A DNA stretch of 64,000 bases from Escherichia coli. GTDB taxonomy: Bacteria > Pseudomonadota > Gammaproteobacteria > Enterobacterales > Enterobacteriaceae. Below, piece by piece: positions 9,587 through 30,085 of this stretch. Made by a program: the position numbers and the translations under genes. Location: assembly GCF_017348835.2 (NCBI RefSeq), contig NZ_CP071375.1, one strand, 5' to 3'. Every line of letters starts with the position of its first letter. Positions within the stretch are counted from its first letter, which is position 1. A model generated the notes under the pieces. That model made no database searches and was not told the origin of the DNA. It was given only the letters and a program-made list of their open reading frames with translations.

Positions 9587-9619
9587 AAAAAAAAGCAGCG
9601 GTACGTCGTTACCGCTGCT
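9587..9619 (-). terminator. Rho-independent terminator downstream of flhC
   Basis: Inverted repeat gcagcggtacgtcgttaccgctgc followed on the minus strand by an 8-nt T-run. Confidence 0.75.
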
Positions 9620-26965: not shown

Positions 26966-27423
26966 AGGAATATCTCCAGAAATAGGGATAACGCTACTGA
27001 TAGTTAGTCATTCGTATATTAGCGGTTTTTATTGCAACTTTGAAACGTTAAAAATGGTGGGTATTCGATTTTTCTCTCGTTTTTGTCAATTCGATTGTCC
27101 ACAGTTATGGTCACGCCCGTCACCAACGGCTTACCGGATCGTTTCACAGTAAGCCCTGCGACGAAATGTGACAAAAATTACCTTTATTCAGCAAAAATGA
27201 AAATCAGCCCGCTGAATATGTAACATTAATTAACCCGAACAATACGGGCAAAAAACATTCATGATAAAAATATTTATTGGTCATTATATTAACGCATTTA
27301 ATAGCACCGTTGACGATACGCTCAAAAAACAACCACTGCTATTTTTAGCAAAGCTTATGGTATACTCCGCCGCCTTAACATTTTTCACCGCAAATTTTCA
27401 TTGCAACATGACGAGGAAAATAA

Positions 27424-27648
27424 ATGAGTACGCCTGATTTTTCTACTGCCGAGAATAATCAAGAACTGGCAAATGAAGTCTCCTGCCTGAAAGCGATGCT
27501 GACGCTGATGCTGCAGGCGATGGGACAAGCTGACGCGGGCCGCGTGATGTTAAAGATGGAAAAACAGCTTGCGCTGATCGAAGACGAAACCCAGGCTGCA
27601 GTATTTTCCAAAACGGTTAAGCAAATTAAACAAGCCTACCGTCAGTAA
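27424..27648 (+). CDS. yecF: DUF2594 protein YecF
   Basis: 74-aa ORF matching YecF. Confidence 0.88.
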
Positions 27649-27651
27649 TAT

Positions 27652-27689
27652 AAAACCGGCTGAGAGCGTGCCTTTCAGCCGGTTTTTGC
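27652..27689. terminator. Bidirectional terminator between convergent yecF and sdiA
   Basis: aaccggctga...tcagccggtt hairpin flanked by an A-run and a T-run. Confidence 0.8.
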
Positions 27690-27715
27690 ATCTGGCACGC
27701 AGAACAGAAAAGAGA

Positions 27716-28438
27716 TCAAATTAAGCCAGTAGCGGCCGCGTAACAGGCAACCTGCGTCTTATTTGGTGCATTAATTTTTTTCTGCATGTTTTTCTGGTGG
27801 AAATTGACCGTATTCTCAGAGATTGACAAAATCATCGCTATCTCTGCTGATGTCTTCCCTTCCGCCGTCCACCTCAGAATTTCTTTTTCGCGCTTGCTGA
27901 AATTCATCTCTGGCGTCATCACTATTTCATCATTTAACCGCATCAGAGTCATCAGACTTTCGCGCACCAGTAACTGCATTTTTAATTGCAGCTCATCACT
28001 AAGAATGGGTATTTCGCGCGCGCTGCAACGGGAAAAGGACAAAAAGCCCAGCGCCCGGTTTGGCAGCATTAAATACTGAGTGACACCGCGGCGTAAACCA
28101 TGTGCGCGCGCGGCTTCCCATAACGGCTGTGCTTCGCTGAATAAGTCATCATTCCACATTAAATGGCCCTGACTAAAGTTTTCAGGGTTCAGCACCGGAT
28201 CAATTGCGAGAAAGTTTTTTGCCTGATAATAACTAACCCACGCCTCAGGGTAATTGGTGTAGAAAGCCACTTTAGGTCGCGTGAATGGTACCGGGTGGCG
28301 AACACATAACGAATAGTAATCGTACTCCAGCTGCTGAGCCTGAAGCTCTATTTCATGGTAGACCTCTTCTGCGGCCTCCATCCTCTGAAAACGCAACAGC
28401 ATCGTGCGACGCCAGCTGAAAAAATCCGTATCCTGCAT
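27716..28438 (-). CDS. sdiA: LuxR-family quorum-sensing regulator SdiA
   Basis: ORF track 27716..28450; known SdiA starts MQDTDFFSWRRTMLLRFQRME (240 aa). Confidence 0.94.
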   Translation of the reverse strand: MQDTDFFSWRRTMLLRFQRMEAAEEVYHEIELQAQQLEYDYYSLCVRHPVPFTRPKVAFYTNYPEAWVSYYQAKNFLAIDPVLNPENFSQGHLMWNDDLFSEAQPLWEAARAHGLRRGVTQYLMLPNRALGFLSFSRCSAREIPILSDELQLKMQLLVRESLMTLMRLNDEIVMTPEMNFSKREKEILRWTAEGKTSAEIAMILSISENTVNFHQKNMQKKINAPNKTQVACYAAATGLI

Positions 28439-28629
28439 AGTAAACCGCAACGCCCCTGAGAGTGAGTATCATTTATAATGATAATTCAAACTATCACATA
28501 AATAAGATTTATATATAATTTATATTATTCAGGCAATGAATTACTTTTGCAAGCCATCGCATTCTCTTATGTTATTAATGAGTTATGCTGATTTGTTAAG
28601 CAGTTTTATCAGGCTTGAAATGGCGTCCC

Positions 28630-28664
28630 GCCCCGACAGGTGAATCGTCGGGGCTGATTTTTTC
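28630..28664 (+). other. Hairpin plus T-run in the sdiA-tcyN intergenic region (terminator-like in plus orientation)
   Basis: gccccgac-aggtgaatc-gtcggggc followed by tgattttttc; lies 4-38 nt beyond the tcyN stop but its U-tract is on the plus strand. Confidence 0.5.
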
Positions 28665-28667
28665 TTA

Positions 28668-29420
28668 TTATTGCAGCAGAAACTTCTCGAGGAACTGGCG
28701 GGTGCGAGGCTGCTGGGGATCGGCAAATAACGCTTTTGCGGCCCCCTGCTCGACTATCCGCCCCTGGTCCATAAAGATCGCCCGGTCCGCAACATCCCGG
28801 GCAAAGCTCATTTCGTGCGTCACAATCACCATCGTGCGCTTTTCCTGCGCCAGCTGACGGATGGTGTTCAGGACTTCGCCCACCAACTCTGGATCCAGCG
28901 CTGACGTTGGCTCGTCAAACAAAATCACCTCAGGACGCATTGCCAGCGCACGCGCAATCGCAACACGCTGCTGTTGACCGCCAGACAAACGACGTGGATA
29001 GCTGGTTTCTTTACCGGCCAGCCCAACTTTTGCCAGTAGCTCGCGAGCGCGCGCCGTAGCCTCTTCTTTTGGTTCGCCTTTGACGATCACCGGCCCTTCA
29101 ATAATGTTCTCCAGCACCGTACGATGCGGAAACAAATTAAAGTTCTGGAAGACAAACCCGACGTGCTGACGCAACTGGCGAATCAGCGATTTTTGCTGAC
29201 TTAATGAACGTGCAGTATCAATAGTGATATCGCCAACGGTGATCGTTCCCGCTTCGGGTTGTTCCAGCAGATTTATGCTGCGTAGCAACGTGGTTTTGCC
29301 GGAACCACTCGGACCGATAATTGCCACCACTTCGCCAGGCTTTACCTCAAGGTCGATACCGTGCAGCACCGTCTGACCGTGGAATTTTTTCACCAGGTTC
29401 TTAACTTCAATGGCACTCAT
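28668..29420 (-). CDS. tcyN: L-cystine ABC transporter ATP-binding protein TcyN (YecC)
   Basis: 250-aa ORF with Walker A GPSGSGKTT and LSGGQQQR signature. Confidence 0.94.
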   Translation of the reverse strand: MSAIEVKNLVKKFHGQTVLHGIDLEVKPGEVVAIIGPSGSGKTTLLRSINLLEQPEAGTITVGDITIDTARSLSQQKSLIRQLRQHVGFVFQNFNLFPHRTVLENIIEGPVIVKGEPKEEATARARELLAKVGLAGKETSYPRRLSGGQQQRVAIARALAMRPEVILFDEPTSALDPELVGEVLNTIRQLAQEKRTMVIVTHEMSFARDVADRAIFMDQGRIVEQGAAKALFADPQQPRTRQFLEKFLLQ

Positions 29421-30085
29421 TTTGGTTCTCTCTCCTGGCGATTAAGTTGATTCTCAAAATGGTTCTGCAACGTCGATAATACTGTCGCCATGATCCAGTA
29501 GATGAGCGAAGCCGCCAGGTACATGGTGAACACCTCCAGCGTGCGCGAGGTAATCAACTGCGCCTGACGGAACAGCTCCGGCACCTGGATTGTCGCGGCC
29601 AGCGACGTATCTTTTACCAGACTGATAAAGCTGTTCGACAGCGGCGGCAACGCCACCCGCGCCGCCTGTGGCAAAATCGCGCGACGCATGGTCTGCCACG
29701 GCGTCATACCAATACTGGCTGCCGCTTCCCACTGACCTTTATCAATAGAAGAAATGGCGGCGCGCAGCGTTTCGGCAGCATAGGCGGCAGTGTTCAACGA
29801 CAGACCAATCATTGCTGACGGAATGGGATCTAATTCGATACCAAACTGCGGCAGGCCGTAATAGATCATAAACAGTTGTGCGATGAGCGGCGTACCACGA
29901 AAAATAGAGATATAAAAACGCGCCAGCCAGCGCACGGGCCAGATTGGCGACAGGCGCATCAGCGCGAGAATAAACCCGAGCAGTAAGCCAAAAAACATGC
30001 CGCCGATACTGAGTTGCAGCGTATACCCAGCCCCTTTCAGCAGGAACGGCAAGGAATCAATAACCAGTTGTATACTTTCTTGCAT
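29417..30085 (-). CDS. tcyL: L-cystine ABC transporter permease TcyL (YecS)
   Basis: 222-aa ORF matching YecS; 4-nt overlap with tcyN. Confidence 0.94.
   Translation of the reverse strand: MQESIQLVIDSLPFLLKGAGYTLQLSIGGMFFGLLLGFILALMRLSPIWPVRWLARFYISIFRGTPLIAQLFMIYYGLPQFGIELDPIPSAMIGLSLNTAAYAAETLRAAISSIDKGQWEAAASIGMTPWQTMRRAILPQAARVALPPLSNSFISLVKDTSLAATIQVPELFRQAQLITSRTLEVFTMYLAASLIYWIMATVLSTLQNHFENQLNRQEREPK

Follow-up and report, generated by a model that had tools for sequence, protein, structure and literature searches.

The hairpin and adjoining T-run that lie between sdiA and tcyN in this Escherichia coli genome are, with high confidence, the Rho-independent terminator common to the isoforms of SdsN, a sigma-S-dependent and Hfq-dependent small RNA (sRNA). 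The finding is real but already explained, since it is the terminator of a known sRNA. The element serves both strands, asymmetrically, as the terminator of a convergent pair formed by an sRNA and an mRNA, the latter being that of the cystine-transport operon, and this two-strand use of the hairpin, together with its possible co-option, is likely a small addition to what is known of it. The window, in what follows, is the whole stretch of DNA analysed, 64,000 nucleotides in length, and coordinates refer to it unless K-12 is named.

The gene order in the window is uvrY, yecU, yecF, sdiA, tcyN, tcyL and dcyD. The region under study and the parts of the element are as follows.

28439-28667: the entire sdiA-tcyN intergenic region, between the sdiA ATG (28438-28436) and the tcyN stop codon (28668-28670, tta on the plus strand).
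28668..29420, minus strand: tcyN, encoding the cystine ABC transporter ATPase, convergent with sdsN, with its stop codon 13 nt from the hairpin.
28630..28654, plus strand: terminator hairpin with the arms gccccgac (28630-28637) and gtcggggc (28647-28654) around the 9-nt loop aggtgaatc (28638-28646).
28655..28663, plus strand: U-rich tail UGAUUUUUU, with 7 U in 9 nt, including the T6 run at 28658-28663.

Read directly from the sequence, the stem comprises 8 bp, seven of which are GC pairs, and TGATTTTTTC (28655-28664) stands directly 3' of it on the plus strand. A 48-nt plus-strand RNA folds into the same 8-bp helix (centroid −16.8 and MFE −17.0 kcal/mol, z = −1.77). Since the stem is a palindrome, the hairpin forms on the RNA of both strands; the minus-strand RNA has 9 pairs, owing to an extra G-U, with −19 kcal/mol and z = −3.2. 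On that strand the stem is followed by GGGACGCCAUUUC, which contains no U-tract. The symmetrical arrangement of A-tract, hairpin and U-tract of a bidirectional terminator is therefore absent here, with the U-run present on the plus strand only. The preliminary description of this DNA had reported an 8-bp GC-rich stem at 28630..28654 followed by tgattttttc, two flanking genes (sdiA and tcyN) both on the minus strand, and no U-tract in the tcyN orientation; the first statement is exact, the second agrees with the gene calls, and the third is borne out by the minus-strand tail.

The combination of hairpin and T-run is well beyond chance. A strict scan of both strands of the 64-kb window, demanding a perfect stem of 8 bp or more with six or more GC pairs, a 3-10-nt loop and 6 or more T in 8 nt, returned three separate sites, the hairpin at 28630-28654 among them; it returned none in any of 30 dinucleotide-preserving shuffles. 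A standard promoter/terminator scan of the window did not report this hairpin, because its 9-nt loop exceeds the 8-nt limit of that scan. The other two sites found by the strict scan, at 9594-9619 (minus strand, AGCAGCGGTAACGACGTACCGCTGCT then TTTTTTT) and at 56705-56729 (minus strand, ATCCCGACCCCCTCAGGGTCGGGAT then TTTTTT), are presumably ordinary gene terminators.

The identity of the plus-strand transcript follows from comparison with the genome of E. coli K-12 MG1655 (NC_000913.3), in which an ncRNA gene, sdsN (b4719, "small regulatory RNA SdsN"), is annotated between sdiA and tcyN at 1996921..1997057 (+). The intergenic region aligns with that of K-12 without gaps and with a single substitution, at 28629 (C here, A in K-12), and the annotation can be carried over as follows.

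28527-28663, plus strand: sdsN gene, SdsN137 isoform, 137 nt, from the K-12 annotation via the alignment; 136 of 137 positions are identical to b4719.

Locus, strand and synteny all match those of K-12 sdsN, in the sdiA-tcyN spacer on the plus strand. The annotated 3' end of SdsN coincides with the last T of the run (28663), 9 nt past the stem, and so lies within the 7-9 nt expected of an intrinsic terminator, as far as the K-12 annotation places it. A ninth pair, A-U between 28629 and T 28655, could form in K-12 and is lost here because C replaces A at 28629. With its GC-rich stem-loop, adjoining U-tract and annotated 3' end, the element has the shape of an intrinsic terminator for a rightward transcript that was originally ascribed to it. 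One of the two explanations offered at the time was that a short unannotated plus-strand transcript, starting in the AT-rich region upstream of sdiA, ends at the hairpin; such a transcript is annotated as SdsN, so that "unannotated" is wrong for K-12 and correct for the PGAP-annotated genomes inspected.

None of these PGAP-annotated E. coli genomes has a feature at the SdsN site, and an Rfam 15 scan of positions 27000-30000 (E <= 10) returned no SdsN family and nothing at the gathering threshold; the element had appeared unannotated because neither source lists anything there. The Rfam match to Spot_42 was rejected as a chance, terminator-driven hit (17.3 bits, the gathering score being 80, and E = 5.2). 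The curated Term-seq tables of Adams et al. 2021 (LB at OD 0.4 and 2.0, and M63) contain no 3' end at the hairpin on either strand; since these tables are curated selections and not complete lists of 3' ends, such absence is weak evidence, and with neither strand represented they are uninformative at this site. Nothing was found for the hairpin site in the TERMITe supplements. The preliminary description, working from sequence alone, had picked out the terminator of a bona fide regulatory RNA. SdsN matches no Rfam family, and the Escherichia alignments could be used to seed a covariance model for it.

SdsN was reportedly described by Hao, Updegrove, Livingston and Storz in 2016 (Nucleic Acids Res, 44:6935), who are also said to have found a third form, SdsN124, arising by cleavage of SdsN178, and an atypical mode of Hfq binding by SdsN178. 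Passages of the published literature state that SdsN137 and SdsN178 are made from two RpoS-dependent promoters and share one common terminator. In four reports that deal with this sRNA (PMC8139620, PMC9262595, PMC7004380, PMC7038943), SdsN137 is presented as Hfq-dependent and as a repressor of narP, with nfsA and hmpA as the other confirmed targets, and SdsN as protecting against nitrofurans. The 5' region of the gene contains the following features.

28486..28663, plus strand: SdsN178, approximate extent, with the 5' end placed from the isoform length alone and the 3' end as for SdsN137.
28514..28519, plus strand: perfect TATAAT, a −10-like hexamer, 7 nt upstream of the SdsN137 5' end at 28527.
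28474-28479, plus strand: second TATAAT, 7 nt upstream of the presumed SdsN178 start at 28486.
28499 (K-12 1996893), minus strand: sdiA transcription start, from SMRT-Cappable-seq Supplementary Data 2.

The sigma-S dependence of SdsN is taken from the literature, and the contribution of the present sequence is the two TATAAT boxes, which may serve as −10 elements. With the sdiA start lying between the two sdsN starts (28486, as deduced, and 28527), the promoters of sdiA and sdsN point away from each other and overlap within about 30 bp. If SdsN178 starts near 28486, its first 14 nt or so would run antisense to the sdiA 5' UTR. Unrestricted RNAduplex runs of SdsN137 against the initiation regions of nfsA, hmp and narP yielded long spurious duplexes no better than those of shuffles. 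In 22-nt windows, the predictions pointed to 28608-28629, with equally good shuffles in 16 of 40 cases for nfsA, 12 of 40 for hmp and 3 of 40 for narP; as these pairings are not significant against shuffles, the targets named here are those given by the literature. SdsN ties stationary phase to nitrofuran resistance and to the handling of nitrogen oxides, a function that depends on its 3' module.

On the opposite (minus) strand, K-12 position 1997018 is entered as a "novelTTS" in the SMRT-Cappable-seq data for K-12 cells grown in M9 (Yan et al. 2018, PMC6131387, Supplementary Data 1). The corresponding features and read counts are given below.

28624 (K-12 1997018), minus strand: 3' end of the dcyD-tcyL-tcyN and tcyJ-dcyD-tcyL-tcyN mRNAs, from SMRT-Cappable-seq.
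dcyD-tcyL-tcyN, transcription start 1999508: 117 reads, of which 31 end at the mapped termination site, 17 read through and 4 end within 50 bp; median read-through 631 nt.
tcyJ-dcyD-tcyL-tcyN, transcription start 2000468: 103 reads, of which 10 end at the mapped termination site, 8 read through and 3 end within 50 bp; median read-through 293 nt.

This end lies 6 nt past the hairpin, and the tail, GGGACG, is without a U-tract. When both transcripts are pooled, about 56% of the reads that reach the site end at 28624 and about 34% continue into sdiA; a dcyD-tcyL-tcyN-sdiA read-through transcript is listed in the same K-12 data (Yan et al. 2018, PMC6131387). At the hairpin the cystine-transport operon has a leaky 3' end, so that tcyN and sdiA are in part co-transcribed. 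The alternative first proposed for the element, that of an atypical tcyN terminator, thus finds its counterpart in a published minus-strand termination site. The two original proposals had been framed as an either/or, and each of them holds while their mutual exclusion does not, given that sdsN ends at 28663 and the tcyN mRNA at 28624. The 3' ends of both convergent transcripts, annotated on the plus strand and mapped on the minus strand, lie on either side of one hairpin, with an overlap of 40 nt (28624-28663).

How the minus-strand end is generated admits more than one answer: it could result from termination driven by the hairpin, from termination driven by collision of polymerases, or from exonuclease trimming after termination further downstream. 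In the last case the hairpin would not terminate minus-strand transcription at all; the polymerase would stop further downstream, at a Rho site or at the yecF/sdiA terminator, and position 28624 would mark the point to which a 3'-to-5' exonuclease had trimmed the RNA, up to the stem. This is a serious contender, to which we give somewhat less than an even chance. It is favoured by the lack of a U-tract past the stem and by the length of the 3' tail, which at 5-6 nt is shorter than the tail at the tcyJ terminator, a canonical one whose 3' ends these data place 7-9 nt past the stem, inside the U-run. The one third of reads that extend a median of 293-631 nt into sdiA point the same way, and Rho-terminated transcripts are said, in work by Dar and Sorek from 2018, to be commonly trimmed to a stem-loop. 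Against it, the Rho regions of Adams et al. 2021 include no minus-strand region in or just downstream of the spacer, the nearest being antisense to yecF, at K-12 1995939, and SEnd-seq work indicates that polymerase collisions can allow a hairpin between convergent units to terminate transcription even when it has no U-tract.

The age of the two sides of the element was approached through 80 loci from species-representative Enterobacteriaceae genomes, retrieved with SdiA as anchor. In about 76 of the 80, tcyN is directly upstream of sdiA. The Escherichia set comprised E. coli lineages, E. whittamii, E. albertii and further Escherichia species, and in this set hardly any position of the intergenic region varies between the sdiA start and about nucleotide 70 of SdsN137. 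The approximately 35 nt before the stem are variable within the genus, and conservation resumes with the GGGGC arm and the T-run. None of the nine aligned Escherichia sequences lacks the T-run (5 T long in E. albertii). Within the genus, 85% of stem cells are paired, and at three pairs both partners have changed, an example being GGT/ACC in place of GAC/GTC in E. whittamii. Outside Escherichia, profile searches show homology only over intergenic positions of about 3-113, corresponding to window positions 28441-28551, that is, the sdiA 5' UTR, the promoter and the first 25 nt or so of SdsN137; no homology was detected over the remainder of SdsN.

Hairpins were counted across the loci by pairing-enforced folding, a stable hairpin being one with dG <= −12 kcal/mol at 0-25 nt from the tcyN stop. 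A stable hairpin follows the tcyN stop in 71 of the 72 non-Escherichia loci, with genus-specific sequences. On the sdsN side, at least 6 T in the 9 nt past the hairpin were found in none of these 72 loci, and in Escherichia in 5 of 6 loci by script and in all 6 by eye, the script having over-extended the helix of locus L004 into the A-run. On the tcyN side, at least 5 U were present in 13 of the 72 non-Escherichia loci and in 1 of the 6 Escherichia loci. Most simply, this pattern of presence and absence suggests a hairpin of long standing at the 3' end of tcyN, to which Escherichia has added the T-run and the sRNA body.

Some of the retrieved loci deserve separate mention. The tcyN-sdiA spacer is 1505 bp long in a Pluralibacter MAG (L066) and 572 bp in Klebsiella indica (L076), compared with about 220-320 bp elsewhere, and insertions may account for the difference. 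A 503-bp contig labelled Terrisporobacter mayombei (L065) encodes an SdiA 98% identical to that of E. coli, and a contig labelled Chryseobacterium sp. (L080) carries a tcyN-sdiA locus of the Enterobacteriaceae type; both look like contamination or mislabelling in public assemblies.

That the hairpin exists without SdsN, given the 71 of 72 loci in other genera that carry it without a plus-strand T-run, and that a minus-strand 3' end is mapped 6 nt past it, could also be taken to mean that it serves the minus strand only, as a terminator or 3' stabiliser of the tcyN operon, the plus-strand T-run being incidental and merely the A-tract upstream of the hairpin in the mRNA. For E. coli we consider this very unlikely, because the annotated sdsN ends exactly on the T-run, the literature describes a common terminator, and the T-run is conserved in all Escherichia sequences while the sequence immediately upstream of the stem varies freely. 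The two roles are, moreover, compatible, so that only the word "only" is in dispute.

It is extremely unlikely that the plus-strand RNA is an mRNA for the 35-residue ORF at 28536-28643, which is initiated by ATG, lies wholly within SdsN137 and has its stop inside the stem, or that it is a dual-function RNA. The start codon is ATT in one of the other Escherichia species (L003), and a stop appears at codon 8 in two more (L005 and L006). The sole purine-rich stretch before the ATG (AGG) is 3 nt upstream, too close for a good ribosome-binding site, and K-12 calls the locus an ncRNA although its curated small-protein set includes the neighbouring yecU. A coding role was rejected on the grounds that the ORF is not conserved in Escherichia.

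Next to no credence attaches to a REP-type repeated extragenic element: the RepRanger paper does list sdsN as "REP"-associated, under a broad definition of palindromic elements, but a 50-nt hairpin query was found in 5375 of 5426 E. coli genomes at a median of one place per genome and a maximum of two, and the palindrome, being single-copy and not dispersed in many copies, is not a REP in the usual sense. Its sequence is also, we presume, unlike the REP consensus.

The preferred reading, SdsN termination on the plus strand, can be laid out as a sequence of steps. SdsN transcription would begin from promoters within the AT-rich stretch upstream of sdiA, at 28527 and, for the longer form, about 41 nt upstream. 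The polymerase would head toward tcyN and stop 9 nt past the stem, at 28663, leaving an RNA whose 3' end would consist of the stem-loop and a poly-U tail. As in other Hfq sRNAs, this tail may protect the RNA and bind Hfq, and the U-tail of SdsN is likely to be an Hfq-binding 3' module. SdsN137 would then, according to the literature, pair with the translation-initiation regions of nfsA, hmpA and narP and repress them. The same DNA also supplies a hairpin to the dcyD-tcyL-tcyN mRNA that converges on SdsN, where it marks a leaky 3' end without a U-tract.

One could further hypothesise that the hairpin is the ancestral 3' stem-loop of tcyN and older than the sRNA, and that in the Escherichia lineage a T-run arising in the 13 nt that separate it from the tcyN stop, together with some 110 nt of new sequence upstream, made a terminated, Hfq-competent sRNA out of divergent transcription from the sdiA promoter region. 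We put this forward tentatively, as a scenario with not quite an even chance of being right. If true, it would be a documented instance of an sRNA gene born when the strand opposite an existing mRNA terminator was co-opted, with the corollary that the leaky minus side, having no U-tract, couples transcription of the cystine operon to sdiA; convergent transcription of SdsN in stationary phase might in turn modulate this leakage. As the hairpin is family-wide and the T-run and sRNA body are restricted to Escherichia, the locus is a candidate for studying the origin of a new sRNA gene.

Other signals in the neighbourhood concern the far end of sdiA. Between the convergent genes yecF (+) and sdiA (−), inspection by eye of positions 27650-27692 revealed ataaaaccggctgagagcgtgcctttcagccggtttttgc, in which a long stem (AACCGGCTGA/TCAGCCGGTT) stands between an A-run and a T-run; it was not listed by the standard terminator scan, and from its sequence looks like a symmetric bidirectional terminator, unlike the asymmetric sdsN/tcyN element. 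Adams et al. 2021 report a minus-strand 3' end inside sdiA (K-12 1996471, window 28077), a Rho-termination region antisense to sdiA (1996249 on the plus strand, window ~27855) and the above-mentioned Rho region antisense to yecF (minus strand, window ~27545). In view of the latter two, mutual read-through between yecF and sdiA seems to be cleared by Rho. A 58-codon ORF at 27261-27437 (+), overlapping the start of yecF by 14 nt, is yecU (b4752), a small protein annotated in K-12.

Comparison with known systems places the element as follows. It shares with K-12 SdsN the locus, the strand, 136 of 137 bases and a 3' end on the same T-run, and differs from it in the substitution at 28629, which leaves a stem of 8 bp instead of 9 bp; the match is known here from sequence. 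Like the 3' modules of the Hfq-binding sRNAs SgrS and RyhB, it has a GC-rich hairpin followed by a tail with six consecutive 3' U, preceded by a U-rich UUUUAU (28604-28609) upstream of the hairpin, Hfq binding at this site being putative; PMC9765468 states that the 3' portion of a terminator generally acts in Hfq binding. Like the bidirectional terminators of convergent gene pairs mapped by SEnd-seq (Ju et al. 2019; for the collision model, bioRxiv 10.1101/2022.10.23.513370), it is a single hairpin flanked by the ends of sdsN (+) and tcyN (−). In contrast to them, it is asymmetric, with a canonical U-tract on the plus strand only and a leaky minus side, and one of its partners is a 137-nt sRNA made mainly in stationary phase. 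In its minus-strand end, a few nucleotides past a stable stem, it resembles the stem-loop-protected 3' ends without a U-tract (Dar and Sorek 2018).
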